Of a stretch of 64,000 nucleotides of DNA, positions 5,232-49,181 are shown piece by piece. Source of the DNA: a virus; the IMG/VR virus record IMGVR_UViG_3300031772_000014, positions 11,151 to 75,150 of that record. One strand, written 5' to 3'. The notes under the pieces were generated by a model, which saw only the letters and a list, made by a program, of their open reading frames with translations, ran no database searches and had not been told where the DNA came from. The position numbers and the translations under genes are program-made. The first letter of the stretch is position 1. Each line of letters begins with the position of its first letter.

Positions 5232-6548
5232 TAAGGCCATGACAGCCGGATTGCCGGTCGTGATTGAACCAACCGCCGGGGTCGCAATCGTGATGACGCC
5301 CGTGAAAGGCGAACCGTTCAAGAGCCCAGATACCTGCGCGACCGGGATCACGATGGCCACGCTGTCGCCCATACGGGCCACGGGCTGCGTGCCTGACCCA
5401 AGACGAATCTGATCTCCAGATACCTCCGTGAGCGCTTGCCCGCCCACGACCATGCTGGTCTTGGCCTTCAACTCTGCGTTGTCGAACGCCAAGGAGAGGC
5501 TGCCGGCACCCTTGAGCGAGAGACCCTTCTTGAAGTCGATCACGCACCCGCCCTCGGACCTGATGAAGACCCCGCCGGCCCGGTCCATGATGAAGTGCAT
5601 GGTCATCTGCTTGGCCACCGCGGGGTTCGCCAGGTCTCCGGTACCGGCCTTGAAGCCACCTGGCGCGATGACGACCTCCATGACGACCGGGGCCGTGGTC
5701 CCGATACCGGCGTTCTGGAGGTCGCTCGTCGAGTCACCGAAGAACGTGCTCCCTACCTTGGGTGGCTCCGTGACGGGGTTGAGGACCTTGCCCTTCGCGA
5801 TGCGGATGTCGCAGAACTGATCGTTGGCGAAGAGCCGATAGGTCTCCATGTGCTGTGCGGCCGGGTTGTCGATGGATGGTCCTTCCTGGATCCCCCACTT
5901 GATGGCCCCGCCCACGTTCTGGTGCTCGTAGTCCCCGGACACGTCGAAGATCTTGTTCGCGAGCGGGATGTAGATGCGCTGCGCCAAGCTCGAGCCGCCG
6001 ATCTGAAGAACGCCGCCTCGATGAAGGATGACGAAGTTCCCGTCACGTCCCTTCATGAACACGTCGCCCGGCTTTATCTCCGGCCTACCGCCATCGAAGC
6101 GGGCGTCGTTATGCGGGAACTCCACCTTGCCGCTGCGGGAGCGTGTGCCCTGCGGGGCGTCGGTACCGGTCAGGTCACCCTGGTCCACGAGCTGATTGCT
6201 CTTGATGGACGTCGTGATGGCATCGTCAGGATTCCCGAGCGGCTTGGACGTGTTGCCAGCCTGCTGCATCGGCATGATGAACGAGTTCACGAACGGCGGA
6301 GACGAATCGCTGGGGATGCACACGAAGCACACCGCACCGACGTCAGGCATCACGAAGATGCCCTCACCGCTGTTGTAGTGCATGTACGGCGAGCTGACCT
6401 GGATGTCGTAGTAGTAGTGCCGGTCGAACTGCGAGATGCAGTCCACGGTGTAGTTCACCAGGTTCACGTTCATGACCCGGCACTGGACCATCTTCGACGG
6501 TCGCTGCCCTTCCGACCGGCCACCGCCACCATCATACCTACGCGTCAT
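5232..6548 (-). CDS. Baseplate central spike (gpV/gp5-like), 438 aa, ending at TTA
   Basis: N-terminal OB-fold-like segment (MPDVGAVCFV) and a C-terminal spike-tip-like motif PVARMGD...GSITTGNPAVMA directly before TTA 5232-5234. The standard code adds 49 junk residues to 5085. Confidence 0.65.
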
Positions 6549-9500
6549 AAGTACACGTGGGAGGGCACGACGTTTTCGCCCTTGGCGTTGCGAGCAAGCC
6601 GAGGAAGACCGAACTCAGCCCCGTAGACCACGCCAGGAATCGGATGGGCTCCGTGGATGCTGGAAACCATCCCCGTCGCGGCAGCTTCCGAGATGGTCGT
6701 ACGGAGACGTTGATGCTGAAGGCGGGCCATCCAATCATCATGCAGAGACAAGGGGAGCATGTCGACTCCCATGAGCACTGGGCTGTGCAGGATCTGACCC
6801 TTGCCACCGGTCTTCAAGTCTCGGTTCATCTGGTTGATCACAGACGTCGGATAGAACTCTCCCCGCATCAAGTGCGGGTGGTCGCCAGGATCTTCCACCT
6901 TCGTGATGTTCGACATCGCACGAACCATGACCTCTATGGCGCGTCGACGAACACCTTCAGCCTTGTAGAGATCGTGGATCTCATCGGCCAGATGGTTCTG
7001 TACGTGGTCCATGCTCTTGGTCGCCTTGTAGAGATCGTGCGGGTTCACGACCGTACGAAGCGGATCTGACAAGGAGCGCCCTGCCTCCACGTGCATCCCC
7101 ACGGTCGGTGGCGTCCACAGGGCCTGACCCTTCGGCGGAATGGCTCCTGGAAGATTGATGTGAAGGTCCAGACCATTGTCGTCCTTGCCGACGAAGTGCG
7201 ATGTGCCGCCGACCCAGATGCGCGTACCCGTGGACTCCTTGTCGATCTTGTCGATCTTCCCAGAGGCCATCGAGACCGTGGCGGAGTTCGGGATCTTCTT
7301 GTGCAGCTTCGTGAGCTGCTCGAAGCGAGCGAAGGAGTTCACGGCCTTTGAGCCGCCGCCAGACTCAGCAACGCCTCCCGTGTGGAAGAGCTTCAGGGTG
7401 AGCTGCACCGCCCGCTCCCCAACCGCGTGCGCGGCCTGGATGCCCACGTTGGTACCGAACTGGTGCTCCTCCCCATCGACAGAGGGCCCCATGCACTTCT
7501 GGCAGATCCCTTTCGGGCTGTCGCACTTCAGCGGACTTCGCACCAGCACCTTGGCGTTCTTGTCCACCGCACGCATCTGACCCACCAGGTCCGGGGTGAC
7601 CAGCGTCCCCGCGGGGATGTGGAGCCCACCGGACCTGAAGTCTGCTGCGAGGTGCCGGTCATGCACGTCATGCTCGGAGAGCGCCATCGAGATGCCCTTC
7701 GAGGTCCCGCAGTCGTGCTTGTCGATCATGAGGTTCATCGAGGTGTTCATCAAGAGTTTCGACATCGCGCCGGGCTCCTGGACCTCCTGGACCTTCATGA
7801 CGGTTCCTCGACGAGCTCCGTGGAGCTGCGTCCAGTACTCCCCTAGGTCGAGACCTTCCGCGTAGCTGTTCTTGATCGGAACCGGGATGTTCTGGCTCTT
7901 GGAGTCCTTCATGATGAGCGGGGACATCACCATCTGCTTGTACTGGTCCCAGCTCGGCTTGGTCCCGGCGGCGGCCATCATGAACAAGTTCGAGGGGTTC
8001 TTCTTCGCCTCCTCCTTGTGCTGCGTCTGCATGTCCTCGCCGGCCTTGAGCCAGACGTTCACGGACTGCCGGTCCTTATCCTTCTCGTTGATGGTCTTGC
8101 TGCCGTTGATGGCATCCACCTTCGTCTGCGCGGCCTTGAGGATGGGGTCCCTGACCGAACGGATGGGATCGAAGTCCTTCAGGCTGAGCGAGTGCGTCCC
8201 GATGGAGAGGTGCTTGTCGGGGATGAGGTTCGTCTTGATGATCCCGTACGAGGCGTCGTACCCCAAGTCCTTCACGTCGTTGATGACTCGACCGAAGTCA
8301 TGCCGGTGATCTTTGCCCAGGGTATCGAGCATGGTCACCAACCCCTTCTTGTCCACCTGGAAGTCCAAGTCATGCAGAATCTTGTTCTGCATCGGCTTCG
8401 GGAGGATGTTCGCCAAGAGCACGCGACCAGCCGTCGTCTCCTTGCCATTCAGGTGCACGATGTCCGTGTAGTCAATCTTGCCCGTGTGCAGGGCAGAAAC
8501 GACCGATGCGTGGTCGGCGAACTTCTTGTCCGTCTTCTTGTCCGTCCGCGAAAGCTTGTAGAGACCCAGAGCAGACTCCAACGTGGGGCGGTACATGACC
8601 TCCCCGGAGGACTCGCTGAAGATGTTCTTCGTCGGGTACATCCTCTCGGCTTCCTTCACGGCCTCGTGGCTGATGGGGACGTAGACCGACATCGCGTCTC
8701 CGTCGAAGTCAGCGTTGAAACCACCCGTCACGAGAGGGTGGATCTTGATGGCGCTGCCTTCGACCGTCTTCGCCTTGAACGCCTGGACGGAGTACTTGTG
8801 CAGCGCAGGGTCACGCTTCAAGATGACGGGGCGCTCGCTCATGACCTGGTCGAGAGCTTTCCAGACCATCGGGTCCTTCTTCCCACGGTGCACCTCAGAC
8901 AGCTTCTCCTGGGCATCGAGGGTGTGCGCGGCCGTGCCTTGCTGCACAAGCTGTCGAACCACGAACGGACGAAAGAGCGTGAGAGCGGCTTCCCTGGGAA
9001 GACCAACCTCGTCGAGCCCAAGGTTCGGCTCTGGGACGATGGTGGAGCGCATGGTCATGTCCTGCTTGCGCTGCGCCAACGTCTTCTGGAAGTAGCCTTC
9101 CTTCGGCTGAGAGCCGGCAATAACCTCGAGGATGCCCTTCTCCTTCTTGTCCTTGTTCACGCTCCCGATGCCCATGATGGCTTTCACGCCGTCGTAGTAG
9201 GAGGTGCGCTGCTCTACCTTCCCCGCATCCGTGAGGTTCTTGGAGAGGATGGGATCCTTGAGCTTGGTGTTGATCTGCGCGAACTTCATGTAGAGGCCGT
9301 TGATGTCCTCGTACTTGATGGCTCCCTGCTCCATCTGATTGATGGGACGGGTGTTCGGCGGCATCACGGGCAGGTTGTGGAGGATGTACGCCTCAGAGGG
9401 CTTCATCCCCAAGTCCTTGAGGACCGTGAGGTACTTCACTTTCTTGAGCGCTCGGTCCACGTTCCCAGGTGACGTGGACCCCAACTCGAGCTTCGCTTTC

Positions 9501-12500
9501 GCTAGGTCCTTGGTCACGTCGATCCTGTCGAGCAGCGTCTTGATACCGGGGCCTCCACGGACACCTGCCACGCTGGTAGTGATCTCTCCCGTCCCAGGCA
9601 CGACACCCTTGGTGCCGTCGATGATGGAGTTGAACTGCTTCTGGGTGATGCCCGTGAGCTTCTTGATCGGCTCCTGGAAGAGCGGGTTCGGAAGCGCTTC
9701 CGCGAGCGCGATGTGGGACCACTTAGTCCCACCGTGACCGCCGGTCACCTTGTCATCGAACAAGCCACCAGGCATCGGCTCGTACTCACCGCTCTTGTTC
9801 GTCTTCGCCCGGACGGGTGAGTTACCAGCCGTCTTCAACTCACCCGCGGACATGTTGAGGATGTGCTTGTCCGTCAAAGGGGAGACGTGGAACTCATGCC
9901 CCTTCTTCTCGATGTTGATGCCAGTACCTTGGAGCATCTGGGTGAAGCGGTGGAAAGCGAACGTCGGACGAGGCGGCGGCGGCGGCATCCCGTTCTGAAT
10001 CGCGTTCCAGATGTCGTTGTGCTGGTTTCCTTGCGTCCATCGCTTCGCTTCGTTCGTCTGGATGTCGTTGCCCTCGGACTTCCAGGTCTGCATCTCTCGG
10101 ATGTTCGCCTTCGCGCCGTGCGCGAGCATCGAGTAGAGCCCGAGAGCTCCCAGGCTCTGACCGCCGGCGTGACCGCCACCGGTAGGCTGGAGGAAGGAGT
10201 CGTACCCCTCCGCCTCGGTCAGCTTCGGCAAGCCCATCCCGGAACGTACCGAGAGCTTCTTGTCCACCTGGTGGACCAACTTCATCATGTACTGCTTGCC
10301 CACCAGAGCTTCCCCGATGGGGAGTTTCGTCATGGGATCGATCAGGTGCTCGGTGTCGCTGAGCCCGTGCTGCTTCAACTCACCCTTGACCTTCTCGAGG
10401 TAGTCCCCCGTGGTCGAGTCGAAGTTATGGACGAGGTACGGCTTGCCGGTCTTCTCGGCAATCTTGGACACAGCCGTCTCGAGCACCTGCCCGATGTTCA
10501 TGCGTCCAGGGACGCCAGCAGGGTTCAGCAAAACCTCGGTGGGCTTCCCGTCTGCCGTGTGCGGCATCTCCTTGTTTGGAAGCACCAAGGTCACGATGCC
10601 CTTGTTGCCGTAGCGCCCGGCAATCTTGTCACCGACCTGCATGGGCTCGATGGTGCGGACATGGACGGAGATGTTCTCTCCGGTCTTGTGGACCCCCACC
10701 ACCTCACCCTTGAAGTCAGACGTCCACCGGACGGACTTGTCCGTGTGCTGGTTGATCATGCTCTTCCGAAGAGCCGCCACACCCGTCCGGTCCTTGAGCT
10801 GGTACGGCATCGTCGCGAGGATGAGCGGGTCACCAGACTTGACCGTGGCCCCAATCTTCACGACCCCGTGCTCATCAACGTTCTTGTACTGCTCCGCCGT
10901 GAAGGCTGTGAGGTGTTGCTGCCGGAACTTCTCCGGAGAGAACACCATCCCCTCCTTCTTCTCGACGTCATGCTTGTGCAAGTGCTCGCTGGAGAGCATC
11001 TGCGCGGCTGTCTCGCTGATGACCACCCCGTCCTCGAAGTTGTAACCCTTGAAGGGGATGTACGCGACGCGGAGGTTGGTACCCAGCGCCAACGCCCCGT
11101 TCTTCGAGTAGTTCGTGTCCGCGACGATCTGCCCAGCCTTCACCTTGTCCCCAACCTTCACGAGCGGGGTCGAGTTCATCGAGCTCTTGGCGTCGTTCAA
11201 CGGGTAGTGATGGTAGAGCTGAATCTCGTGCTCGCCGTCCTTGCCCTTGATCGTGATGCCGTCCTTCGTGATCCCTGAGACGACGCCATCCGTCCTCGAG
11301 AAGTGCGCGGTCTGCTTCCCCACCAGATGCTCGAAGGAGTTGATCCCCGTGGTGGTGGGAGGCGTGGCCACCTGGACGAGCGGTGCTTGGCGACCGATGA
11401 GGGAAATCGCCTGCTCCATGTGACGGCTGCCCATGCTCGCGCGACCACCAGAGCTGTTGCCCAGGAACGGGATGAGGTTCGAGGTGACGTTGAATAGCTG
11501 TGACGAGTGCCGGAGCACGTAGTCGGCTTCGACGAACTTCTTCTCTTCGATCTTGTTCCCCTGCCCGACGATCTTGATCATGGGACCAGTCGGCACGGGC
11601 TTTCCGTCCTTCCAGGTCACCTGGTCCGGCAGGGCGACGTTCGAGGCGATGAACTGGTGCGGGCTGATGTCCTCCGTCTTCCCGGTGCGGATGTTGAAGA
11701 CCGGAATCTTCGCCTCGTTGCCGACCTTCTTCAAACCAATCGGCAGGCGCAGGGTCACGCCCGTCTTTTCACCCTCGGGGGTGTTGATGGGATCCAAGAA
11801 GCCGATGTGCGAGACGTTGATCATCTTCGCGTCAGCCGTCACCTGCCGGTCGCTCTTGATACCGCCCGGTCCCATGATGGTCGTCTGCATCGCCGCAGAC
11901 ACCATCTCGAGAGGATTGATCTGCTTGGCCGGGTTCGACAGGGCACTCTTCAAGAACAGGGTGCGGACGGGCTCGTTGAAGATGTCCGCTTTGATGACAT
12001 CTCGAACCCCCGTCGCCTTGGGGTTGTTGAGCTGCCGCTGCATCTTCATCTGGATGACCTTGGAGGACACCCGCATCTGATCCTGGATGAAGTCCCCTGT
12101 GGAGCGCAGGGTCTTGAACGTCAGGGAGTCCCGGTCGTCCTCTGGGGCACCACCGTGAAGGGCCAGCAACTTGTTGGACGCCCGGTGAAGAGCATCTCCG
12201 GTGACGTGCTCGAAAGCCTTACCCAGCGTGACCTGGGTCACGTCCGGGTTGATCTTCGACTCACCCATGACTTTGATGAGGTGGTCCTCCGCCGCTTCCT
12301 TGGAGGGAGCCGGGAGCTTGGTGGTGGTCTTGTAGAACTGCTCGACCGCACCATCCACCCGCTTGCCCTTCTTGTTGGCCTCGAAGATCTCCTTGCCCCA
12401 CGACTTCTCCAGAGCCTCGTCGCTGACACCCAACGTCTTCATCAGGGGGTAGAGGGGGATCTTGGCCTTCTTGTAGTCCGCGACGAAGACCTTCTTCTCC

Positions 12501-12943
12501 GGGTCGAAGACAACGTCGAAGGCAGAACGTCCAACGACGTTGAACCGGGACTCGAGCTCTCCGTTCGCTCGACGCCTCGTGTAGACGCCAGGCTTGAGCT
12601 GCCACTGGTTGTCCACCTGGTACTCCTGCCCGTCCAGGATGTAGGAGTACCGGCGGGTCATCTTCGGAAGGTCGGCCAGACGAACCTTCTTCTTGTCAAG
12701 GGTCTTGCCAGTCTCGTTGTCCTTCAACGAGAGCATCCCATGGATGGGAACGGTCCAGCTCTTGCCGTTGATCTTGGCCTCGTGCTGCGACTTGATGTCG
12801 TCCGGGTGAAGCTTGTCGTCGATCAAGACCTCGTCGAGATGCAGCGTCGTGGTCCTACCTTTGAAGGGGAACGAGGACTTCAACCCTTCCACGGTCTTGT
12901 CCCGAAGGTGGTCGAACGCATCTTGAGGATTCAGGTAGGCCAT
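6545..12943 (-). CDS. rpoBC: Single-chain multisubunit-type RNA polymerase (beta-beta' fusion), about 2132 aa
   Basis: Beta motifs TPEGEKTG, GYNFEDG, GDKIAGRYGNKG, YMMKLVHQVDKK, GGQSLG; then beta' motifs GGLFD, LPVMPPNTRP, KRDPALHK, catalytic NADFDGD, RSPLKC..C..C, GERAVQLTLKLFHTGG. Ends TAC TTA TGA. Confidence 0.95.
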   Translation of the reverse strand: MAYLNPQDAFDHLRDKTVEGLKSSFPFKGRTTTLHLDEVLIDDKLHPDDIKSQHEAKINGKSWTVPIHGMLSLKDNETGKTLDKKKVRLADLPKMTRRYSYILDGQEYQVDNQWQLKPGVYTRRRANGELESRFNVVGRSAFDVVFDPEKKVFVADYKKAKIPLYPLMKTLGVSDEALEKSWGKEIFEANKKGKRVDGAVEQFYKTTTKLPAPSKEAAEDHLIKVMGESKINPDVTQVTLGKAFEHVTGDALHRASNKLLALHGGAPEDDRDSLTFKTLRSTGDFIQDQMRVSSKVIQMKMQRQLNNPKATGVRDVIKADIFNEPVRTLFLKSALSNPAKQINPLEMVSAAMQTTIMGPGGIKSDRQVTADAKMINVSHIGFLDPINTPEGEKTGVTLRLPIGLKKVGNEAKIPVFNIRTGKTEDISPHQFIASNVALPDQVTWKDGKPVPTGPMIKIVGQGNKIEEKKFVEADYVLRHSSQLFNVTSNLIPFLGNSSGGRASMGSRHMEQAISLIGRQAPLVQVATPPTTTGINSFEHLVGKQTAHFSRTDGVVSGITKDGITIKGKDGEHEIQLYHHYPLNDAKSSMNSTPLVKVGDKVKAGQIVADTNYSKNGALALGTNLRVAYIPFKGYNFEDGVVISETAAQMLSSEHLHKHDVEKKEGMVFSPEKFRQQHLTAFTAEQYKNVDEHGVVKIGATVKSGDPLILATMPYQLKDRTGVAALRKSMINQHTDKSVRWTSDFKGEVVGVHKTGENISVHVRTIEPMQVGDKIAGRYGNKGIVTLVLPNKEMPHTADGKPTEVLLNPAGVPGRMNIGQVLETAVSKIAEKTGKPYLVHNFDSTTGDYLEKVKGELKQHGLSDTEHLIDPMTKLPIGEALVGKQYMMKLVHQVDKKLSVRSGMGLPKLTEAEGYDSFLQPTGGGHAGGQSLGALGLYSMLAHGAKANIREMQTWKSEGNDIQTNEAKRWTQGNQHNDIWNAIQNGMPPPPPRPTFAFHRFTQMLQGTGINIEKKGHEFHVSPLTDKHILNMSAGELKTAGNSPVRAKTNKSGEYEPMPGGLFDDKVTGGHGGTKWSHIALAEALPNPLFQEPIKKLTGITQKQFNSIIDGTKGVVPGTGEITTSVAGVRGGPGIKTLLDRIDVTKDLAKAKLELGSTSPGNVDRALKKVKYLTVLKDLGMKPSEAYILHNLPVMPPNTRPINQMEQGAIKYEDINGLYMKFAQINTKLKDPILSKNLTDAGKVEQRTSYYDGVKAIMGIGSVNKDKKEKGILEVIAGSQPKEGYFQKTLAQRKQDMTMRSTIVPEPNLGLDEVGLPREAALTLFRPFVVRQLVQQGTAAHTLDAQEKLSEVHRGKKDPMVWKALDQVMSERPVILKRDPALHKYSVQAFKAKTVEGSAIKIHPLVTGGFNADFDGDAMSVYVPISHEAVKEAERMYPTKNIFSESSGEVMYRPTLESALGLYKLSRTDKKTDKKFADHASVVSALHTGKIDYTDIVHLNGKETTAGRVLLANILPKPMQNKILHDLDFQVDKKGLVTMLDTLGKDHRHDFGRVINDVKDLGYDASYGIIKTNLIPDKHLSIGTHSLSLKDFDPIRSVRDPILKAAQTKVDAINGSKTINEKDKDRQSVNVWLKAGEDMQTQHKEEAKKNPSNLFMMAAAGTKPSWDQYKQMVMSPLIMKDSKSQNIPVPIKNSYAEGLDLGEYWTQLHGARRGTVMKVQEVQEPGAMSKLLMNTSMNLMIDKHDCGTSKGISMALSEHDVHDRHLAADFRSGGLHIPAGTLVTPDLVGQMRAVDKNAKVLVRSPLKCDSPKGICQKCMGPSVDGEEHQFGTNVGIQAAHAVGERAVQLTLKLFHTGGVAESGGGSKAVNSFARFEQLTKLHKKIPNSATVSMASGKIDKIDKESTGTRIWVGGTSHFVGKDDNGLDLHINLPGAIPPKGQALWTPPTVGMHVEAGRSLSDPLRTVVNPHDLYKATKSMDHVQNHLADEIHDLYKAEGVRRRAIEVMVRAMSNITKVEDPGDHPHLMRGEFYPTSVINQMNRDLKTGGKGQILHSPVLMGVDMLPLSLHDDWMARLQHQRLRTTISEAAATGMVSSIHGAHPIPGVVYGAEFGLPRLARNAKGENVVPSHVYL

Positions 12944-13006
12944 CGGTAGGAACCTCTTGGCACGGTACAGCACCGGCGAGTAGCCGAGCAAGAAGACGTG
13001 AAGATA

Positions 13007-13036: not shown

Positions 13037-13048
13037 AAGGAGAACGCC

Positions 13049-14405: not shown

Positions 14406-14421
14406 ACCAAAGGAATCCAAC

Positions 14422-31591: not shown

Positions 31592-33550
31592 ATGAGTTGG
31601 AACATCGAAATGCCGGATGCCGTCTGGCTTTCCGGAGATTCACCTGCGCACGAGATTCAAGAGTTCGTCAATGAGGTGGCTGATTGCAAAGAAGTCGCCA
31701 TCGACACAGAGACCACGGGGCTGAACATCTCGAAGGACACCGTCCTGTACTGGTCGGTGGCCTGGTACCGGCCGAATGGTTCAACCGTCAGAGCGTGTCT
31801 GCGGGCAGACCTCCTCTACCGGTTCGAGGACATCTTCCACGAGAAGGACCGCAACTGGATCTTCTGTAACGCGAAGTTCGACGCCCACATGTGCAAGAAC
31901 ACGGGCATCGACATCGACGGGGAGTATCACGACATCTCGGTCATGCACTCCCTCCTGTACGAGGAGATGCCGCACGGCCTGAAGGAGATGACCGCGCAGC
32001 TACAGGGCTGGAAGTGGCGGGGCTTCACGGACACCTTCGGGAAGGTTGACCGCAAGGATCCGAAGTGGATTCAGAACGCCCTCATCACGGCCGAGAAGGA
32101 GAACCTCGCCCTCCTTACCGAGTACGCATCGAACGATGCCTTTGGGACGCTCGAGAACTATCGAACCCTCAAGGCTCAACTCCAGGAGGCCGGTACCTGG
32201 TCGCTCTACCCGGAGCTCTACGGAAACCTCTGGGACCTCTTCAAGAAGGTGGAGGTACCCTTCACGAAGGTGCTCTGGAAGTGCGAGCGGGCAGGGATGC
32301 GCGTGGACCTTGGCTACCTGTCTGCCATCGAGGGCCCGGTGAAGATGGAGATCGAGAAGCTCGAGCGCGAACTCGTTCGTATGCGAGGTAAGCCCGTCAA
32401 CCCCAACTCCACCATGCAGCTACGGCAGTGGTTCTTCGAGGAGCTTGGGATCAAGCCAACCAAGTTCACGAAGGGTGGCGCCAAGGGGGTGAAGGAGCCC
32501 TCGCTGGACTTCGACGCCCTCACGGCACTCGCGGACGACGGGGTCACGGCCGCCATCGCGCTGCTTCGCTACCGCGACCTCACGAAGCTGTACGGCACCT
32601 ACGTGATCGGGCTCCAGGACAAGGTCGACCAGTACAGCCGGGTTCACACCCGCTTCAACCAGGACGTGGCACGTACGGGCCGGCTCTCATCATCGGACCC
32701 GAACCTCCAGAACATCCCGTCGCCCGACAACGACAAGTTCAAGATCCGCAAGGCGTTCACGTGCGAGCCAGGGAACTGTCTCATCGTGGCCGACTACGAA
32801 CAGCTCGAGATGCGCTTGCTCGCCGCCGCGGCGATGGAGCAGGACATGATCGACATCTTCCTCAAGGGCTGGGACATCCACATGGGCAACGCATCGCTCG
32901 TGTTCGGTCTCCCCTACGAGGACATCGCGAACGCGAAGAAGACCGACAAGAAGGTCAAGGAAGGGTTGCTGCCTGAATCCGAGATGACCGAGTACGTACA
33001 CAAGTGCCTGTACGCCAGGCAGGCCGCCAAGACCATTGGGTTCGGGCTGAACTACGGGATGGGTGCCAAGCGCCTCGCAGCGACCCTCGGGCGCACCGTC
33101 GAGGAAGCAGAGGCACTCATTGACCAGTACATGTCCCGCTACCCCACCGTGAAGCAGTTCTTCAAGGACTCCACCAACACGGCACTGGAGTACGGGTACG
33201 CCTTCACGATTCTCGGACGACGACGGTTCCTCCCAGGGATCAAGTCGAACAGGATGGTGGACCGAAGCCGCGCCGAGCGGCAGGCGTCCAACCTACCCAT
33301 TCAGGGCACCGCGGCAGACGTGGCCAAGATGGCCATGATTCGCTGCGACGAAGCAAACCTCCACGACAGGTTCGGATGGCACATGATCTCCCAGGTTCAT
33401 GACGAACTCATCTTCGAGGGACCTGAAGAGACCGTGGACGACGTAATCCCCATCGTCCGGGAGTGCATGATGCATCCCCTCCCTACCGACCTAGCGGTGC
33501 CGCTCACCATCAGCATCGGCAAGGGTCACACATGGGTCGATGCGAAGTAA
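31592..33550 (+). CDS. polA: Family A DNA polymerase with 3'-5' exonuclease
   Basis: IDTETTG, NAKFD, TGRLSSSDPNLQNIP, ADYEQLEMR, RQAAKTIGFGLNYG, IQGTAAD, QVHDEL. Confidence 0.95.
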   Translation: MSWNIEMPDAVWLSGDSPAHEIQEFVNEVADCKEVAIDTETTGLNISKDTVLYWSVAWYRPNGSTVRACLRADLLYRFEDIFHEKDRNWIFCNAKFDAHMCKNTGIDIDGEYHDISVMHSLLYEEMPHGLKEMTAQLQGWKWRGFTDTFGKVDRKDPKWIQNALITAEKENLALLTEYASNDAFGTLENYRTLKAQLQEAGTWSLYPELYGNLWDLFKKVEVPFTKVLWKCERAGMRVDLGYLSAIEGPVKMEIEKLERELVRMRGKPVNPNSTMQLRQWFFEELGIKPTKFTKGGAKGVKEPSLDFDALTALADDGVTAAIALLRYRDLTKLYGTYVIGLQDKVDQYSRVHTRFNQDVARTGRLSSSDPNLQNIPSPDNDKFKIRKAFTCEPGNCLIVADYEQLEMRLLAAAAMEQDMIDIFLKGWDIHMGNASLVFGLPYEDIANAKKTDKKVKEGLLPESEMTEYVHKCLYARQAAKTIGFGLNYGMGAKRLAATLGRTVEEAEALIDQYMSRYPTVKQFFKDSTNTALEYGYAFTILGRRRFLPGIKSNRMVDRSRAERQASNLPIQGTAADVAKMAMIRCDEANLHDRFGWHMISQVHDELIFEGPEETVDDVIPIVRECMMHPLPTDLAVPLTISIGKGHTWVDAK

Positions 33551-38734: not shown

Positions 38735-39399
38735 ACGACCCATTCGCCAAGAAGCCCCACGGGGTAAGGCAGCAGGTTGCTTCCGGTGGTCTCAGCATCG
38801 GCAAGAGCGTCGGCATCGCGAACTCGAAGCTCGAAGAGATCGTGATGAAGTTCCGGACGCTCGGCGGTCCCAATGGGATCGAGGCCGACATGAAGACGAA
38901 GGGGCCGGCTGAGTTCTCGAAGCCGAGCTCGGCCCCGATGGAGATCACCCCGGAGATGCTCTCCACCACCAACCCGGACGAGCTCAGCCGAGCGCTCGCT
39001 GAGCAGAACGCCTGGCTGAACTACTACTCGCCCATGATGGCAACCGTGGAGTCCGGGCTCGCAGAGAGCGAGAACATCATCACGCTGGTCGAGGCGCAGA
39101 TCCGCAAGGACATGCTCGAGATCAACAAGACCACGAACAAGGGGGAGAAGTTCTCGAAAGAAGAGATCGACGCGGAGGTACTCACGAACCCGACCTACCA
39201 GGACTGCCTTCTGGAGGTTCAGAAGATGAAGCAGTACCGGTTTCAGATCGACGGGTACATCAACATCGCGAACAGGAACGTCCGCACGGTCTCGAGGCAA
39301 ATCTCCTTGCGAGGGCAGGAGTTGGACGGGAGCAACCGGGAGGCCAACGTCGCGAAAGCGGGAGGCGGGGGTCGTCGCTACGGCCCACTGCGCGGCTAA
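38731..39399 (+). CDS. Helical hypothetical protein (possibly UvsY-like mediator)
   Basis: Coiled-coil character, recombination context; function is inference. Confidence 0.5.
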   Translation: MNDPFAKKPHGVRQQVASGGLSIGKSVGIANSKLEEIVMKFRTLGGPNGIEADMKTKGPAEFSKPSSAPMEITPEMLSTTNPDELSRALAEQNAWLNYYSPMMATVESGLAESENIITLVEAQIRKDMLEINKTTNKGEKFSKEEIDAEVLTNPTYQDCLLEVQKMKQYRFQIDGYINIANRNVRTVSRQISLRGQELDGSNREANVAKAGGGGRRYGPLRG

Positions 39400-39878
39400 T
39401 GATTCGCATCGACCTCGTGGGCCTTCCGCCGTCGTCCAACAACGCCTACGTGGAACTGCCACCTATCGTGAGGGGAAAGAAAGTCATCCCCCGCGGTAGG
39501 CGGCTCTCGGCGGAAGGTGAGAAGTACAAGCGGGAGACCATCACGCACATCGTGAGGAACTACCCGAATGAGCTCTCGCAGGTAAAGCCCGACGTTGGGT
39601 TGTTCCTGTACGTGCGCTTCTTCTTCGAGGCGCTCTACAACAAGGGGTGGCCAAAAACAGCGGAAACACGGTACAAGAGGATTGACGTTACGAACCGGGT
39701 CAAGCTCCTCGAGGACTGCGTGAAAGATGCCTGCGGCATCGATGACTCGCAGAACGAGTTCGTTCTCCTCGAGAAGCGCCAAGGCCCGGACGCGACGGTT
39801 GTATTCATCTGGAACCTAGACAAGGAGGTGCCCCCTGGACTTGACGAGCTCTCACGACTCTTACTGGGACCGTTGTAA
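39399..39878 (+). CDS. rusA: RusA-like resolvase (ends at 39863 if TTA is a stop)
   Basis: PPSSNNAY, DVTNRVKLLED...IDDSQ; in-frame TTA at 39861, five codons before TAA. Confidence 0.7.
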   Translation: MIRIDLVGLPPSSNNAYVELPPIVRGKKVIPRGRRLSAEGEKYKRETITHIVRNYPNELSQVKPDVGLFLYVRFFFEALYNKGWPKTAETRYKRIDVTNRVKLLEDCVKDACGIDDSQNEFVLLEKRQGPDATVVFIWNLDKEVPPGLDELSRLLLGPL

Positions 39879-40191
39879 CCTGACGGAGCTTTACCAAGTA
39901 TGCCGTCGAGCGGGGCTACAAGTTCTCCCGAGCTACCCTCGCGAGAAGCTGATTGCCCTACTCGAGGGTGAAGAAGTAGAAGAAGAAATCAGTCATCCCG
40001 TTGACGCCTGGCGGGATGCACTCATGCGATTCATCGATGACTACTGGGTGAAGATCCAGAGCCAGATAACGTGTCCGGCAAAGAGCCGAGATCCGAAGGC
40101 ATGTTACGGATGTACCGATACCCAGGTGTACTCGTGCCTGGTGAAGAACGAACCGTTGTTGACTCAGATCACGAAAAGGAAAAGACCATGA
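39841..40191 (+). CDS. Hypothetical Cys-containing protein
   Basis: TTG start with AAGGAGG upstream; CPA...CYGC...C. Confidence 0.6.
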   Translation: MTSSHDSYWDRCNLTELYQVCRRAGLQVLPSYPREKLIALLEGEEVEEEISHPVDAWRDALMRFIDDYWVKIQSQITCPAKSRDPKACYGCTDTQVYSCLVKNEPLLTQITKRKRP

Positions 40192-40760
40192 CCACTGTCG
40201 GCAAGACCACCGTGAACACCGCTCCCCGTGACAAGGGGCAGCTCGTCCGCCTCGGACGTTTCCAGCTTCGCGCCCTCGCGCTCGAACTCGGGCTGGTGGC
40301 CACCGAGGACAGCAAGACCGCCTACGCGGCCATGACCGTGGAGGACCAGGCCCAGGCAATCCTGGATGCTCTGAAGGCACAGGGCGGTGCCCCCTCGGCC
40401 CCCTCGGCGCCTGCCGCTCCCGCGGCCGACAAGCCGAAGCGCACCCCGGTGGGCGCTCCCCAGACCCAGGCCCCCACGCAAGCCCCCGCGGACACGAGCG
40501 GCAACCTCGACGTCGTGATGGAGGTGCTGACCAAGGTCCTCGAGAACACGGCGCTCCTCCACGAGAAGATCGACGCCATCAACGAGAAGCTCGGTCGCTC
40601 GGAGATCGACTCCGCGCTGGGGCTCACGCTGGGACTCATGCTCGCGGAACAGAGCATGGGCGCCGGGCGGGACGACATCCTCACGGCCGTCTTCGAGGAT
40701 GCCCCCGGCATCCAGGCGAAGGTGACCGCGACCCTGGGAAAAGGGAAGAAGAAGAAGTAA
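40188..40760 (+). CDS. Hypothetical two-domain protein with Pro/Ala linker (possible -1 frameshift isoform to 40813)
   Basis: ATGA-coupled start 40188 with AAGGA SD; ends GKGKKKK. Confidence 0.7.
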   Translation: MTTVGKTTVNTAPRDKGQLVRLGRFQLRALALELGLVATEDSKTAYAAMTVEDQAQAILDALKAQGGAPSAPSAPAAPAADKPKRTPVGAPQTQAPTQAPADTSGNLDVVMEVLTKVLENTALLHEKIDAINEKLGRSEIDSALGLTLGLMLAEQSMGAGRDDILTAVFEDAPGIQAKVTATLGKGKKKK

Positions 40761-40811
40761 GGGCGTGGCCGGGCGCCAGGTGGCCGACACCTGAAGAGCT
40801 CGAGGACGAGT

Positions 40812-40842
40812 AGAAGGGCGGGGGTAACTCCCCGCCTTTTCT
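40812..40842 (+). terminator. Intrinsic terminator ending the replication operon
   Basis: AAGGGCGGGG-gtaact-CCCCGCCTTTT. Confidence 0.7.
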
Positions 40843-40843
40843 C

Positions 40844-40990
40844 TAGCCCTGCTTGTAGGTCACAGGACACATCCGTGTAGCGGCGGCTAAACAGCCAGGT
40901 GGAAGACACGAAAACACGAGCCCAAGCCACCACCCCTCGAATGCCTGACGTGTCTCTTCTTCGTTGTCCTGTGACCTACAAGTAGAGCTA
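40844..40990. repeat. 147-bp element bounded by long inverted repeats
   Basis: CTTGTAGGTCACAGGACA (40852-40869) and its perfect reverse complement (40965-40982), extendable to 26 bp with 2 mismatches. Confidence 0.85.
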
Positions 40991-41437
40991 CCGGGAACGT
41001 AGCAGGTACGCGGTGGTGAACCCCACCGCCAAGGTTCCCGTGACCCCCACCGCAACCCCAAACCAGGTGGTGCGGTAGAACGCGGGGCTCTGGGCTTCAG
41101 CAAGCTGCCGCTGGTAGTCGCTGGTCACGACCTTGAACTGCTCCTCCCGTACCGACAGGGAGGTCTTCAGGAAGTCGATCTGGGCCTGGTCGGTCTTCCG
41201 CTGAAGCTCCACGTCGGCCACCAGGCGAACCCGGCACTGCTCGAGGTAGTGCCCCCACCGGATGGCGGTTGGGTTGTCGAAGAGCTGCCCGGAGTACGGG
41301 GCCGGCTGACCCTGCCCCACGGGCTCGATACGGTCCTCCCCGGGCGGGATGGGGACCAGAGGGGCCACGGGGTCCGCCAGGGCCCTCGTGGACAGCGTGA
41401 GGGCCATCAGGGCGGCCAGGAGGGCGCGGTGGTTCAC
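40988..41437 (-). CDS. Signal peptide, coiled coil and C-terminal TM protein (spanin-like?)
   Basis: N-terminal signal ending ALA-D; C-terminal hydrophobic helix; lysis-like cluster. Confidence 0.55.
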   Translation of the reverse strand: MNHRALLAALMALTLSTRALADPVAPLVPIPPGEDRIEPVGQGQPAPYSGQLFDNPTAIRWGHYLEQCRVRLVADVELQRKTDQAQIDFLKTSLSVREEQFKVVTSDYQRQLAEAQSPAFYRTTWFGVAVGVTGTLAVGFTTAYLLRSR

Positions 41438-42715: not shown

Positions 42716-42729
42716 GTTGATCTCCTAGG

Positions 42730-42927
42730 TTACCTGTTCGGGACGTGGTCCGCGATGATCACTTCACCGTTCGCGTGAACGGTAATGACCCCCACGGTAC
42801 CCTTGCGTTGACCCACGGCCTGGATGGCCTGCCAGATCTTGATCCCAAGTGCCTGGTCCATCATCGGGTCCACGTTGTTCACGTTGATTACCTGATGTGG
42901 CCCGAAGGTGAAGCTGTATGTCGACAT
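42730..42927 (-). CDS. Small hypothetical protein (65 aa)
   Basis: GAGG SD; fills the gap in the late operon. Confidence 0.6.
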   Translation of the reverse strand: MSTYSFTFGPHQVINVNNVDPMMDQALGIKIWQAIQAVGQRKGTVGVITVHANGEVIIADHVPNR

Positions 42928-42936
42928 ATCGTGACC

Positions 42937-43950
42937 TCAGAAGGCAGGGAGGACAGTTCCGTTGACCCACACCGTGACCCGCCCAGAGCTCAGGACATGC
43001 GGTGCGGCGGTCTCGAAGGTGGTCTTGAGGGTGATCCTATCCACGGCAATCACACCCACAGTCCCTGGGAAACTTACCAGGGCTTGTTGACTTCCACCGC
43101 TTATCGCAGTCCACGCTGACAATCGGTCAGCGGATGGCCATCCCTCGTTCACGGAGAAGTTCCTGTCAGATAGGCCTGCCCCGTATGACCTGTCTGGCCC
43201 AGTAACTTGGAAGTCCCTGAGCGTGGTGGGGCTCCTTTGTCCAGCGGAGAACCCTAGCCAGTAAAGAGTCCAAGGGTCTCCGTAAAGGATCTCGAAGCTA
43301 CCGGCTGGGTTCAGGGACTTGATTTTCAGGAAGTTGCCGACAAGGCTCACCGAGGCCCCGCCACCAAGTTGAACCTGTAGCGCGACCTGTAGCGCCAGGA
43401 GACTGGTCCAGTTTAGGGTAGTTACAGTGACTACCCCGACCACCCCATCCAACTTGTATCCGAAGAGACCGTCGTAGGTCACGAAGGGGTACGTGTAGAG
43501 CCCTACATCCGCGCCAAGGATGGACGGTTCCAGCGCACCGATCCGCAGCGTACAAAGAGGGACCAACAAGGTCCCGGCAGCAGCAAGTCCTGCCGAGAGC
43601 GTAGCGGTGGTGGTCGTGTCTCCGGCCGAACCAGGGACGATGATTGGGTGCGACAACGCCAGGCCGATTGACTCGATGAGGAACGCCGGTTTCTGCGGAA
43701 CCGCCACGGTGTCGACAAGGTGCCCCGGGTTCAGCGGCGGCAACCAGATGTCATTGAAAAGGACAACCCCACCAGGCCCAGACGAAAGACCATTGAGCAC
43801 GATGTCTCGCGCGAAGGAGAACTTGGCCCCAACGCCACCACGTAGGTCAGCGTTCGTGGTACCGACACCGTTGGGGTACGTGGTGATCTCCGGGTCGTAC
43901 AGGAAACCACGCTGCGTGTTGACGAAGAACTTTGGGTAGGTGCGGTCCAT
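42937..43950 (-). CDS. Tail-associated protein (337 aa; MDRTYPKFF...), merged with the upstream gene in the ORF track
   Basis: TTAGGA-tcgaac-ATG: an SD-like site and ATG follow the in-frame TTA at 43960. Confidence 0.6.
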   Translation of the reverse strand: MDRTYPKFFVNTQRGFLYDPEITTYPNGVGTTNADLRGGVGAKFSFARDIVLNGLSSGPGGVVLFNDIWLPPLNPGHLVDTVAVPQKPAFLIESIGLALSHPIIVPGSAGDTTTTATLSAGLAAAGTLLVPLCTLRIGALEPSILGADVGLYTYPFVTYDGLFGYKLDGVVGVVTVTTLNWTSLLALQVALQVQLGGGASVSLVGNFLKIKSLNPAGSFEILYGDPWTLYWLGFSAGQRSPTTLRDFQVTGPDRSYGAGLSDRNFSVNEGWPSADRLSAWTAISGGSQQALVSFPGTVGVIAVDRITLKTTFETAAPHVLSSGRVTVWVNGTVLPAF

Positions 43951-43959
43951 GTTCGATCC

Positions 43960-46293
43960 TAACGGTACCGGGTAACCGCCGGTCCTCTCCCAGAAGATGT
44001 TGTTTCCTAGCTGCCTGCCCACGTAAACGTCGATGGCCCCATTCGGCCCAAAGGTCGGGGTCAAGAAGATGTCCAGTAGGTTGAAGAACGTGGGGACCGG
44101 TACCAGGAAGGCGCTATCGGAGAAACATCCGATGAGAACCAATGAAAGGCTGGTGAGTGGGTTCTGTCGGTGGATCACCAACCTCACCTCGCTATCGATC
44201 AGCGCATTGATCGACACGTTCCTGAGAGCAACAACCAGTAGCGGGCTTGGACCCACGTACGAGGTAGAGATGAAGATGGACAGACCATCGTAGGTGGGGA
44301 CCGGGACGATGTTGCTCGCGGTAACGATGGTCTGGATGCTCTGGCCAAGCTGCTTGCCGGCCACGATGCCGTTGTAGTTGTTGAGCGGCCCGTACGCCAA
44401 CACGTTGCCGGCAAGGGCCAGGATGTTGCCCTGCTGGGAGATGATATCGTCGATGAAGGTGGCGGACTTCATGGAGATGCTGCCCACGAATGAGAAGATC
44501 CCACCAGAGCCGGTAAGTATCGACTTGGTTTCGTACGTGGACCCGGTGTTGCCGACCGACAACACTCTGTTGAAACCACCCCACGCGAAGGCGGTGTCGT
44601 TGAAGGGATCTTGACCTTGCGCGTATACCTGCATGAACCCGGTCGGTACTTGTTGAAGCAGCAAATCTGTAACCTTGGGGGGTTGGGCGTACACCATTCC
44701 CCGCGGGATGCTGCCGAACGGAAGCGAGCCGTCTGCCTCTCGCTTCTCGTCGATGCCATCACCCACGAAGAACTCCATGCTGAGCCAACGCGTGAGTAGT
44801 CCCTGGGTGCCCGTGAGGACATCCGGTTGCTCCCCATCGACAGACACAATCAAGCAGTTCTGCGCCGAAGAGGCGAAGAGCTTCTCGATGAAGTACGTCC
44901 GGCGGCGTAGCGCAAGGCCGGTCGAGTCGACGTGCTCTATCTCGAGCATGTCGTACCCAACAGAGATGGCCGAGATGCGGTCAGGACCAACCGTCAGCCA
45001 GAACCGGTTTGGTGCGGTCATGGTCAGAAGGGTTCGCCCCGGTACCGTGACCTTGTCGAATACCACCAGGGAGTTGGGCGTGATGGCCGTGAAGTTGCTG
45101 GACTCTGAGGGCTGCGTGTCCGTCCGGGGAGATACCCCCAGGAACTTCGCCATGCCCGGAAGCGGGGCACTGTGGGTAAGGCTGATCAGAGCGTTGGTCA
45201 GCGAACGACCACCGTAAGCCACGAACCCAGAACCGCCGCCGAAACCCTTCTGGGCACCAGGACCGGAGATGTCGAAAAAGTCATCGAGATGCGCGGTCCA
45301 GATGGCATCCAGAGGATCCAGGTACATGGTCCGGTACGCAGAGTCGGTGTTCCAGAAGTCACGCTGGCTCCACCCGCTCATGGCCGGGCCGGTACGCTGG
45401 TACCAGCTACCACCACCGGCCTGGTTGTGCTGGATGGCCGGCAGCCCGCTGTTGGTCGGTACCGTCGCGGGGATGTCGGCCACGGTACCCCGGCGATACC
45501 GCTCGTTCATGCCACTCAGCGCCAGGTCCCAGACCGTCGACACGTAGGGGCTGTTCCACCACGTGGATACACTGGGGGTTCCGTTCAACCTGAAGAGCTG
45601 CTTGACTACTTGATCCGCGGCCCCGACCTGCCGGCGCCCGATGGGGTCCGGGGTAGCGGTGCTGAGGTACCGGTGGACCCGGTAGTGAACCCGGAAGACC
45701 GACCAGGGCCGACCAGGCACGATGGGGACGTTGAGGTTGAGCGTCACCGCGCCGGCGGGAAACCCGGAACCGATCACCGCGCCCGCGATGCTCGCCACCA
45801 CGACCTTCGTGGCCGGGGGCACGAAGAGCTCATTCCCGAGCGTGTCCGTGACGACGAATAGTTCCTGCGGGCTCGTGGCAGGTGCATCACTCACAAACGG
45901 GAAGTCCGCGGCAGGGATGACCACACTGGTAAGGTTGCCAGGGCCTGCATTGCTGTACCCACGGAAGGTAGGAACCGCAAAGCTGTTGTGGAGGAGGTCA
46001 TCGAGGTAGTCGATGTTCTCCGCCAGGGCGCCATGGCCCCTGTTCGCGTCTGACGCGGTCGCGTCCTCCCCGAAGGCCCAGAAGTACGTGCCCTGGTTCG
46101 GCCCACCGATCTTCTGCCCCACAGCACCGAGGAAGTTGTCCACCGGGGCCGAGCCGAGACCACCCACACCACCGCTCGCGACGTTGATGTAGTCGTAGGT
46201 CTTGCCGGTGGTCTGTGCGGCCGAACCGCCAGTCGGAATCGAAACGGCGAAGAGCCAGGCGGGGTTCGTGAAACGGTGAAAGCGGGTGGGCAT
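43960..46293 (-). CDS. Tail-fibre-like protein 2 (777 aa), ending at TTA
   Basis: Full-length paralog of 46989..49181 (FHRF, NRG..AL.EN.D.LDD, DPL.A.W, GYD..EI, AWGGF, DVY.G). Confidence 0.65.
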
Positions 46294-46303
46294 CTGCGGC
46301 TCC

Positions 46304-46978
46304 TAACGGGAGGGCTGCGAAGTCGATGACTTCGTGACCGATGATGTTGACGAGGAGCACCGGCGGAACCCCAGCAAACCCCGTGATGGCGTTCACGAAG
46401 CTTTCGTTCCTGACCTTGATGGCAAGCTCGAAGGAAGTGAGAAAGCCTCCGATGGCCAGCGGGACAGCTACAGTTTCGAGCGTTCCTGGGATGGCGAGCA
46501 AGAGCGTCTGAGCGGCAGGTAGCGCGACACCCGTACTTGACCAGATGGCGCCGCCAAAGTCGTTCTTGGGGGTGGTGTCGTTACGACGAATCTCGATGAA
46601 GAACGACGCACCAGCGGTCTGCGGGTTGATGAGCCCGATAGCCCCACCGGTCAGGACTTCCACCTGATCGATGACGAAGAATGTCTTGTCAGTCGAGAAC
46701 TTGTCAACCGGGCGAGAGAACTGAAGGATACGGGTCCAGAAGTTCGCAGGCCCAGGGTTGAAGAACTCCGTGGGGTAGATGAGCGCGAAGTCGTTCACCG
46801 CACCAGCCGCGATGTTGTTCTGTAGCTGTACCCGCGTCTGGATGCGAACCTGGTTGCCCGTGTACCCCCTGGGACGAGGAGGGTCTCCACTTCCGTTCAC
46901 GCCCACAGGCGCAGGCGAACCCCCCGAGGTTGGGATCCACTGGTAGCGCGACGAGTACCCTGAAGAGACCTTGGACAT
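46304..46978 (-). CDS. Tail-associated beta-rich protein (224 aa), ending at TTA
   Basis: Protein-like up to ...VIDFAALP, then TTAGGAG and the next ATG 10 nt later. The standard code adds 102 junk residues. Confidence 0.65.
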
Positions 46979-46988
46979 GGTGGATACC

Positions 46989-49181
46989 TAACGTAGCGTT
47001 GTAACGTTTCACCGACATGAGGATCTTGCTCATACCACCAGCACCGTGGGTAACCAGGCCCGTGTAGACGTCGACGTACCCGACCGCGTTCGAGAACCAG
47101 CAGTCCGACAAGTTCTCGAACACGTAGTTGCCGGGCCATGCGCTCAAGTCTGCAATCTGCATTGGTGCACCGTCGTGTCGAATGACCCACGTGATCACGC
47201 GACCCATGTCGTTCGAGTTCACGTTCAACGACGGGAACGTGATGGCCACGATGGGGGACGTGGTGGGGCCCACCGTGGAGTACTCGTTGTAGTCGGACGT
47301 CTCCGCGTCAGCCCCGAACAGCAAGGTCACGATGAACGGGAGGATGAACGTGGTCGTCGCCCCAGGATCCCTGGCCACGACCTTCTTGGCCTCCACGGCA
47401 CCGTCGCCACGGAGCACGCCGTTGTCGAAGTACTTCCCGGTGACCGCGAAGTTCAAAGACGAAGTTCGGAACCCGCCCCACGCCAGGGCATTCGTCTTCC
47501 CGGTCTCATTTGAAGCGTAGAGCTTCGCGGAGTAGTCATTCCTGTCCGCGTTGGTTGGGATGGGCGTTGTATCCAACTGGTGCGGGGCCGCGTAGAAGAG
47601 CCCGTCGAACTTCAGCTTGCTGGTCGTCCCGATGTCGTACCCGGCCACGCCGTCGCTGACCCCGAACACCATCGAGCGCCATCGAATCGTGCAAGGCGTG
47701 TTGGGCAGGAACGTGGGGGTCGTGCCGTCCATGTTCTGGATCATGGCGACCGTGCCGCTGAAGAGGTCCACGATCACGTACGTCTTCGGGGCAGCCCCGG
47801 GGGAGAGCTGGATCTCCACTAGGTCGTACCCCTTGGCCACGGAGGTCCGCCACTCACCGAGGACGTTCGCGGCCCAGAAGTCCGGGATCGACAGGATGAC
47901 CCAGCAGTCCGCTCCAGCGTTGAGCAACACCGCCGCGGTGTCTTGTCCAACGAACGTGAACGAGCTTCCGGGGATGATGCCGGACATCGGGTGGTTGGAG
48001 GTATGCAGGAAGGAGGAGTACCCGGACCCCTGCCGGTTGACCCCGAACCCAGTGTCGTGGGCCCCGTAGGTCATGCGGCGCTGCCCGTAGACCACGAACC
48101 CGGAGGAGCCTCCCTTGTGGAGGTTTCCCTTGTCCTCAATCCAGGCAGACCAAAGAGCATTGAGGGGATCGAAGTACTCGAAAGTTGCACTTAGCTGGCT
48201 CAAGGCGCTCACCATCATGGGTGAGTGCCTGGATAGGTAGTTGCGCTCTCCCCAGAACCCGGGCTGTGCTCCGGGCGCCGCGTTCGCGGCGTTCGGGGTC
48301 ATGTACGAAATGGGCGCCGGCACCGTGTCGATGAGCGGGTCGGTGTTCCGCAGCAACATCTGGTTGAGCCCGTGATGGTTCAACTGCCAGAGGCTGTGCT
48401 CTCCGCTCCCAACACCGTCGCCAGAGTACCAGGTGGAGTGCGCGTACGCCTCGGGCTTCCCATCAAGTCGGTACAGGAAGCGGGCCACCGCACCATCAAT
48501 GCCGTTCGGGTACGGGCCATGAATGTCGGGCGTGATGAGCGCCAGGTTGCTGGCCCTACGGTAGTTGACGAAGATGCCCCCGCTGAACGGAGGGGTGGGC
48601 GTGAACCCGTTGAACGTGACCGTGACCGGGCCAGGCACGAACCCGCTCCCGATGGGGGACGTGCTGGCCACCACACGTAGGTTGTCGTTCAACGCAGGGA
48701 TGAAGTACGCATCCGGGCTGAACACGCCACCGACAAACCCATTCGTGATCGTGAAGAGATCATCGAAGGTCTCCGGGCCAGACCCAAGCCACACGTATGA
48801 CCCAGGCGGGAACGTGTATGAGTTGATAGCGGGACCGAAGAGCGGAGTGGCCACGAAGACAGACTCACGTACCCCGAAGACCTGGTGCACGACGTCATCT
48901 AGGAAGTCGGTGTTCTCCCCGAGGGCCTTGAAGCCACGATTGACGTTCGCGCTGTACCCCGGGTCGTCAAAGCCGACCCAGTACGTGAACGGCGTCGGCC
49001 CAACCAGCGGGGGAGGGTTCGCGAACGCCGTACCGCCACCACCGGTCGCCCCGGAGACGATGTTGACTCGGTCATAGACCACACCGCCCGAGGCAGGTTG
49101 AGGCTGCGAGGTACCGGGACCCAGAGGAATCGCGACGTACCCGGTCCAGGTCGGATCTACGAATCGGTGGAAGTTCGACAT
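46989..49181 (-). CDS. Tail-fibre-like protein 1 (730 aa), ending at TTA
   Basis: Protein-like up to ...KRYNAT; TTA 46989-46991, next ATG 10 nt later. The standard code adds 95 junk residues. Confidence 0.65.

Follow-up and report, generated by a model that had tools for sequence, protein, structure and literature searches.

The DNA considered in this study is a window of 64,000 nucleotides, bases 11,151 to 75,150 of a single viral contig of 75,150 bp (G000), and the subject is the triplet TTA (UUA in the message), which forms the last codon of several of its genes. The contig has a GC (guanine plus cytosine) content of 61.6%, with about 23,800 codons and 70 genes, and CheckV puts its completeness at 41%. 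Its products include a single-chain beta/beta' RNA polymerase of 2,131 amino acids (aa), a DNA polymerase A, a DnaB-like helicase, a primase, a RusA-like nuclease, baseplate proteins, and very large tail proteins. Searches made with this RNA polymerase put the contig in a large group of uncultured phages of about 185 to 195 kb, a family found in metagenomes of soil, sediment, and freshwater, with GC contents from 41% to 66%. Among isolates, none comes nearer than Vibrio phage D69 and Salmonella phage Arash, with an identity of only about 31%, and the fibre region had no BLAST match, as nucleotide or as protein sequence, in 50,697 phage records. DNA nearly identical to G000 is present in sediment metagenome runs.

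Many of the comparisons below are with a second contig, G001 (94,293 bp, 50% complete by CheckV), which was found by an alignment-based scan of IMG/VR, a single-protein scan of that database having had no match. G001 is collinear with positions 11,571 to 72,898 of the G000 contig, at about 73% nucleotide identity (roughly 70–76%). A search for the remaining half of the genome yielded only a distant contig of 315 kb. Genes were called on the basis of codon usage, by a caller trained on the contig itself and run both under the standard code (code 11) and with TTA as an extra stop.

Gene ends at TTA in the window

A first-pass annotation of the window, made from its letters, had proposed that UUA ends translation in this phage, pointing to six in-frame TTA triplets. 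All six are present and in frame with well-supported genes. The plus strand reads TAA at five of the positions (5232, 6548, 43960, 46304, and 46989), and since the genes there lie on the minus strand their codon is TTA; at 39861 the plus strand itself reads TTA. The six ends are as follows.

5232..5234, minus strand: TTA end of a 438-aa spike-like gene (5232..6548), read GCC TTA CG and then the ATG at 5229 of the next gene (4600..5229)
6548..6550, minus strand: TTA as the last triplet of the gene for the 2,131-aa fused beta/beta' RNA polymerase (6548..12943), read TAC TTA TGA
39861..39863, plus strand: TTA end of a 154-aa RusA-like gene (39399..39863; PF05866, E = 1.6e-5), with TAA four codons later
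43960..43962, minus strand: TTA end of a 777-aa gene, the second fibre-like gene (43960..46293), read CCG TTA GGATCGAAC and then an in-frame ATG at 43950
46304..46306, minus strand: TTA end of a 224-aa gene (46304..46978), read CCG TTA GGAGCCGCAG and then ATG at 46293
46989..46991, minus strand: TTA end of a 730-aa tail-fibre-like gene (46989..49181), read ACG TTA GGTATCCACC and then ATG at 46978

Apart from the RNA polymerase, these TTA-ended genes found no match in a search of PHROGs. At four of the five minus-strand junctions TTA takes the place that normally belongs to a stop joined directly to the following Shine-Dalgarno sequence. The RNA polymerase gene is the ambiguous one: its TTA is directly followed by TGA (6545-6547), which the start codon of the spike-like gene, ATG (6548-6546), overlaps (TTATGA), so that the site fits either code, and G001 has TAC TGA there without the TTA. 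On this site the first-pass annotation needs correcting. Contigs from two other sediment runs bear on the accuracy of the sequence: one of them (X2) covers 46989, both (X2 and X3) cover 46304, and they differ from G000 elsewhere, with no difference at these two TTAs.

All five of the junction TTAs that can be compared are retained in G001, each again ahead of the start of the next gene. The TTA at 46989 has counterparts in the protein homologue P0002 and at G001 position 47351, where the gene it ends is likewise 730 aa; that at 46304 recurs at 46666, again after 224 aa, and in the window it is the +1 frame that scores as coding from there on. The arrangement at 43960 is repeated at 44355. In the window the ATG at 43950 begins a gene of 337 aa (42937..43950), which code 11 fuses with the preceding 777 aa into one open reading frame (ORF) of 1118 aa. 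The TTA of the spike-like gene is kept at 4561, with the spacer CAG, and the +1 frame offers no stop at this site. The TTA of the RusA-like gene is kept at 40180; the triplet corresponding to its backup TAA is CAA in G001, where the next stop is 23 codons away, and downstream of 39861 the periodicity of substitutions is not in the TTA frame.

If TTA were read as leucine, the genes of the window would acquire long tails, as the first-pass annotation had said, in addition to the artificial fusion of 777 and 337 aa. Under the standard code the tails run to 48 codons in G000 against 210 in G001 after the spike-like gene, 101 against 30 after 46304, and 94 against 81 in the third case, and the homologues conserve neither their length nor their frame. 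Because of a one-nucleotide insertion or deletion immediately behind the spike TTA, the following gene is out of frame in G000 but in frame in G001. Upstream of TTA, mismatches between the contigs are most frequent at third codon positions of the TTA frame; downstream of it, they are most frequent at third positions in the frame of the next gene (the 46989 and spike sites included). By these comparisons the sequence after TTA is not protein of the TTA frame.

Three further TTAs of G001 align with standard stops in the window, in orthologues of identical length (652, 190, and 65 aa).

33548..33550, plus strand: TAA stop of DNA polymerase A (31592..33550, 652 aa, ending ...WVDAK), aligned with a TTA of G001
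40758..40760, plus strand: TAA stop of a 190-aa gene (40188..40760), whose G001 orthologue (40516..41088, 190 aa) ends AAG TTA against AAG TAA
60381..60383, minus strand: TGA stop of a 65-aa gene (60381..60578), whose G001 orthologue (60706..60903, 65 aa) ends GCG TTA against GCG TGA

DNA polymerase A is the most fully documented of the three. The gene in G001 ends GCT AAG TTA at 32877, against AAG TAA in the window, and similarity collapses thereafter, as nucleotide similarity also drops after the end of the 65-aa gene. The match to the Pfam model DNA_pol_A extends as far as model position 380 (of 381), reached at residue 649 of the 652, and among the 120 best homologues the median length is 655 aa, the nearest of them ending in ...DAK or a close variant. 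In a database entry of the G001 type (P0009), position 653 is L, the sequence beyond it is unrelated, and the total length is 843 aa. This entry is one of several over-extended public entries, a cluster of nine member sequences, and stands with two fibre entries of 796 and 825 aa (P0002 and P0001); all three are too long because TTA was read as leucine. One apparent TTA gene end in G001, at 22306, is a false positive and intergenic.

TTA within genes, and relatives that keep it as leucine

The earlier reading by eye of some 20,000 codons had found no TTA within the body of any gene, and none is found when the whole contig is re-called: there are 0 internal in-frame TTAs in the 23,823 codons of G000 and 0 in the 28,616 of G001. 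Nine of the 70 genes in G000 and 18 of the 123 in G001 (about 14%, or one in seven) end at TTA, the nine comprising the six in the window and three outside it, at contig positions 2107, 2669, and 10005. Five TTAs in G000 that seem to occur early in genes belong to weak antisense ORFs, spurious ones that lie within the polymerase and tail genes, and two further TTAs, at 662 and 63495, both lie upstream of the best gene starts, as had been claimed. Pooled over the two contigs, the positions of TTA are skewed to gene ends (Kolmogorov-Smirnov, KS, p = 1e-6; Mann-Whitney, p = 3e-5).

The absence of TTA is not just a matter of GC bias, since other pairs of codons that differ by a final A or G keep their A-ending members. 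TTA accounts for 0 of the 240 TTA and TTG codons in G000, while for AAA, CAA, GAA, AGA, CTA, and GTA the A-ending share of the pair is 7–21%. TTG is a common leucine codon in G000 (the same 240), and TCA is an ordinary sense codon. Adding TTA to the stops raises the number of genes called on G000 from 67 to 70, its coding fraction from 93% to 95%, and the summed coding score by 207; G001 gains 203, and its gene count also rises. The three standard stops are all retained, as the first-pass annotation had it, TGA ending 36 genes of G000, TAA 14, and TAG 11. In-frame TAG or TGA inside genes, the sign of stop-to-sense recoding, is not seen: the genes called under code 11 are long and intact, at a coding fraction of 93%.

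Relatives of similar GC content in the same family served as controls: two complete genomes, G002 (190 kb, 63.7% GC) and G003 (187 kb, 60.5% GC), and a 103-kb fragment, G004. They contain in-frame TTA at 0.54–0.88 per 1000 codons (overall about 0.6), without preference for any part of the gene (KS p = 0.77). With the rate pooled from the three, G000 should contain 14.8 internal TTAs (Poisson probability of none, 3.6e-7) and G001 17.8 (1.8e-8). Calling TTA as a stop lowers the coding scores of G002, G003, and G004 by 59, 53, and 61. When the RNA polymerases are aligned, the TTAs of high-GC relatives (L024, L029/G003, and L040) fall in columns that are leucine in 24–28 of 29 sequences, and at these columns G000 and G001 have CTG, CTC, or TTG. 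Unlike its relatives, then, the G000/G001 lineage has no in-frame TTA at a conserved leucine. From the rates in the controls, the placement of their TTAs, and the leucine columns, TTA is an ordinary leucine codon in the family, and its meaning appears to have changed in the G000/G001 lineage.

The two contigs are not the only members of the family in which genes end at TTA. In another locus, L026, whose RNA polymerase is 55% identical to that of the window, two genes end at TTA where at least eight relatives have TAG, TGA, or TAA. In the tree of RNA polymerases, G000 and G001 together are sister to loci L014-L016, and L026 is sister to L040; by this placement, the trait of ending genes at TTA requires at least two changes.

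Several other features of these genomes deserve description. One gene in L026 (20420-20428) ends with the tandem TTA GCC TTA, which resembles the tandem stops that guard against leaky termination. A single triplet is shared by two convergent genes in G000 (L066:10005-10007, in contig position, 1,144 bases before the window) and in L026 (24663-24665): it is the TTA end of a terminase-like gene and, on the opposite strand, the TAA stop of a gene of the helix-turn-helix (HTH) type, a layout that other relatives do not have. The RNA polymerase combines homology to beta and beta' in one chain of about 2,130 aa (window 6548-12943, minus strand), a fusion conserved in more than 50 metagenomic loci of phages of about 185 kb; in some members of the family the enzyme is enlarged by insertions to 2,500–2,900 aa, possibly by inteins or homing elements. 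G001 has, at 60,700-93,400 (L009-L010), about 60 small genes that are lacking at that place in G000, among them genes for a protein with a Tad2-like (anti-Thoeris) domain, a ParB, and a phage ProQ-C-like protein.

The three controls carry transfer-messenger RNA (tmRNA) genes of their own, with the tags ANDNATAALPIAA, ANDNATPALAVDKAA, and ANDNANQAAA, and G002 and G003 also carry genes resembling those of transfer RNA (tRNA), in which ARAGORN reads A34 or four-base anticodons. The tmRNA and tRNA-like loci in G002-G004 are L072:17402-17751, L084:3109-3475, and L087:8522-8890; L069:12983-13178; and L082:15052-15205. At L015:4470-4700 (minus strand) there are three tRNA-like genes in tandem (Rfam tRNA, 37–49 bits), all with abnormal anticodon arms: a loop of 8–9 nucleotides, a GAAA tetraloop in place of the anticodon, and an insert of 18 nucleotides.

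Probable termination at UUA and the alternatives

That TTA ends genes in G000 is confirmed as an observation. For the G000/G001 lineage as a whole, the comparisons with homologues make TTA a well-supported gene end, and UUA most likely works there as a fourth stop signal. The proposal that UUA ends translation in this phage is supported: each attempt to refute it from homologues and independent assemblies went in its favor, with an altered release factor, or a missing tRNA together with rescue, as the candidate mechanisms put forward by that annotation. The reading I favor, with a probability of about 0.65, is that UUA is no longer leucine, and that about one gene in seven ends at UUA and is released there by a relaxed class I release factor (RF) in a cell without tRNA-Leu(UAA). 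UUA would be used interchangeably with UAA, UAG, and UGA and placed just ahead of the next Shine-Dalgarno sequence and ATG, and the factor would be relaxed in its reading of the second codon base. A possible model is an RF2-type factor with a substituted Ser204, by analogy with organelles; because UUA stops in organelles have been tied to that substitution, a modest change in the RF2 of host or phage is a plausible route.

The host is a more likely source of the factor than the phage: the trait is scattered over the phage tree, in a manner that favors a code determined by the host, and the approximately 107 kb of this lineage that can be read contain no gene of the kind. I would go further only tentatively, at somewhat less than even odds: after loss of tRNA-Leu(UAA) and relaxation of its RF2, the bacterial host may itself use UUA as a fourth stop, with phages of several unrelated families adapted to it. 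Searches for such a host returned little. Genome contigs gave only a 2-kb contig in a metagenome-assembled genome of Myxococcota (40% RNA polymerase identity), and database clusters gave viral clusters only. A screen of DNA patterns for RF2 with Ala or Gly in place of the serine of the SPF motif had 0 hits in 401 Myxococcota genomes, a result that is uninformative because the sensitivity was only about 40% (the normal motif was recovered in only two of five genomes).

A number of points weigh against release at UUA by a relaxed factor. The evidence for termination is comparative, and data of this sort fit factor-mediated release and stalling followed by rescue alike. No tRNA, tmRNA, or other Rfam gene was found in G000 and G001 (fragments that are 41% and 50% complete), and a search of G000-G004 for the RF-1 domain also found none, so that loss of the tRNA and an altered release factor are both conjectural. 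Moreover, three of the 27 TTA ends in G000 and G001 have a standard stop zero or one codon later and are uninformative. Pfam screens of 131 predicted proteins found no translation factor, Pth, or tRNA nuclease.

The main rival, which I consider unlikely, takes UUA for an unassigned (hungry) codon. There would be no tRNA to read it, either because the host has lost it or because the phage destroys it, and the ribosome would stall and then be rescued, whether by near-cognate action of a release factor, by drop-off of peptidyl-tRNA with Pth, or by hydrolysis of the ArfB type. Such a codon accounts equally well for the missing internal TTAs and the tolerated terminal ones. It also accords with the lack of a release factor gene in the G000 and G001 fragments and with the tmRNA and odd tRNA-like genes of the relatives, which indicate an interest in translation and rescue. 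However, stalling on an intact mRNA normally leads to cleavage of the message and to tagging by tmRNA for degradation (reviewed in PMC10732093), a poor route to abundant fibres, polymerase, and terminase. Some 14% of genes depend on TTA, mostly without backup stops. TTA, moreover, swaps freely with real stops and is kept over long divergence, as an efficient signal would be. A good deal less probable is that UUA is still leucine but decoded only with a regulated or phage-supplied tRNA, in the manner of bldA, which would make the junctions switches between early short and late extended proteins. Streptomyces and phage Hau3 offer precedents for regulation and bypassing that depend on UUA (PMC10732093), and some junctions are in frame and could give clean fusions (43960, and G001 73342 and 90294). 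Against this, the frame relation is not kept at the spike junction (which the insertion or deletion described above puts out of frame in one contig only), most tails are off-frame and of variable length, and there is no internal TTA. No tRNA gene was found in the G000 and G001 fragments, and a TTA of G001 aligns with a plain stop at the natural end of DNA polymerase A.

For the human mitochondrial 'stops' AGA and AGG, a −1 shift onto UAG has been proposed. By analogy, a +1 slip on UUA-G might bring UAG into the A site, in which case the real stop would be a standard one, and the sequence CGTTAGG is indeed common to three sites in the window, with G following TTA at 12 of the 27 ends in G000 and G001. 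The idea has been raised for the upstream ORF (uORF) of adpA (PMC10732093). It is very improbable here: the following base is C at 13 of the 27 ends and T at two, giving UAC or UAU (A occurs at none), and the TTAC sites include the conserved spike site and both of those aligned with TAA. G after TTA (44%) is not clearly more frequent than after standard stops (28%), and the GGAG that follows explains it. I give almost no credence, finally, to an artefact, whether a systematic error of sequencing or assembly, a modification of the DNA, or editing of the RNA to UAA. The sites are known from assembled contigs alone, but the TTAs recur in G001 (assembled separately, from another metagenome), in L026, and in the contigs of the two other runs, and errors would neither spare gene bodies nor respect reading frames. 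U-to-A editing is not known in bacteria or phages.

Known reassignments and implications

The first-pass annotation knew of UUA as a stop only in the mitochondrial code of Thraustochytrium. This was too narrow, since plastid and green-algal cases have been described (PMC12574857), but a search of the literature did find no report of a UUA stop in a phage or bacterium. Reassignment from sense to stop has been published for organelles only, that is, for some mitochondria and plastids. UUA is a stop in the mitochondria of labyrinthuleans, to which Thraustochytrium belongs (NCBI table 23), and in peDinoflagellate plastids; these systems use an RF2 of bacterial type, and substitution of its Ser204 is the proposed cause (PMC12574857). 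As in those organelles, UUA here would have passed from leucine to stop, it is absent from gene bodies and stands at the stops of homologues, and the three standard stops are kept. The differences are of setting: small organelle genomes served by nuclear-encoded factors, as opposed to a tailed phage of about 180–190 kb with, by implication, bacterial translation. UCA is a further stop in the peDinoflagellate plastids but not in G000, where TCA serves as ordinary sense. In the mitochondria of Marsupiomonadales and Pseudoscourfieldia both UUA and UUG are stops, with an altered mtRF1a (PMC12574857); this too is a change from leucine to stop with the same comparative signature, and those mitochondria lack a cognate tRNA gene, as no tRNA gene was found in the G000 and G001 fragments, but in G000 only TTA is affected.

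Other known systems share parts of the pattern. Phages that have recoded stops to sense read TAG or TGA as an amino acid (bioRxiv 10.1101/2021.08.26.457843, PMC9523058). They resemble the present case in that genes are called wrongly under code 11 and the trait is patchy on the phylogeny, but the direction is the opposite one, no stop is read through here, and no suppressor tRNA is involved. In Streptomyces, UUA is read by the bldA tRNA, the uORF of adpA ends in UUA five nucleotides before the main start, and UUA triggers bypassing in the terminase of phage Hau3 (PMC10732093). High GC, near absence of UUA, and translational consequences near a downstream start are common to both; UUA in Streptomyces is nonetheless still leucine and confined to a few regulatory sites, while here it ends about 14% of genes, of all classes, and interchanges with stops. 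The human mitochondrial AGA and AGG, which lack a cognate tRNA and are cited as handled by a specialised paralogue, mtRF1 (PMC12574857), are likewise sense codons found at gene ends, but a shift onto a standard stop would be possible at fewer than half of the sites considered here.

If UUA is indeed a stop in these phages, then mis-annotated proteins now in the databases are explained, and a new translation table would be needed to call genes in metagenomes. A release factor that reads UUA would be of interest for engineering of the genetic code, and the patchy spread of the trait over the phage tree provides a handle for matching phages with hosts and for finding the release factor responsible. 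The case, observed in a phage and probably bacterial, would mean that bacterial termination machinery can gain a fourth stop in nature. Should the code prove to be the host's, free-living bacteria would have their first example of a sense-to-stop genetic code, one that is invisible both to standard gene callers and to inference of codes from amino acids.

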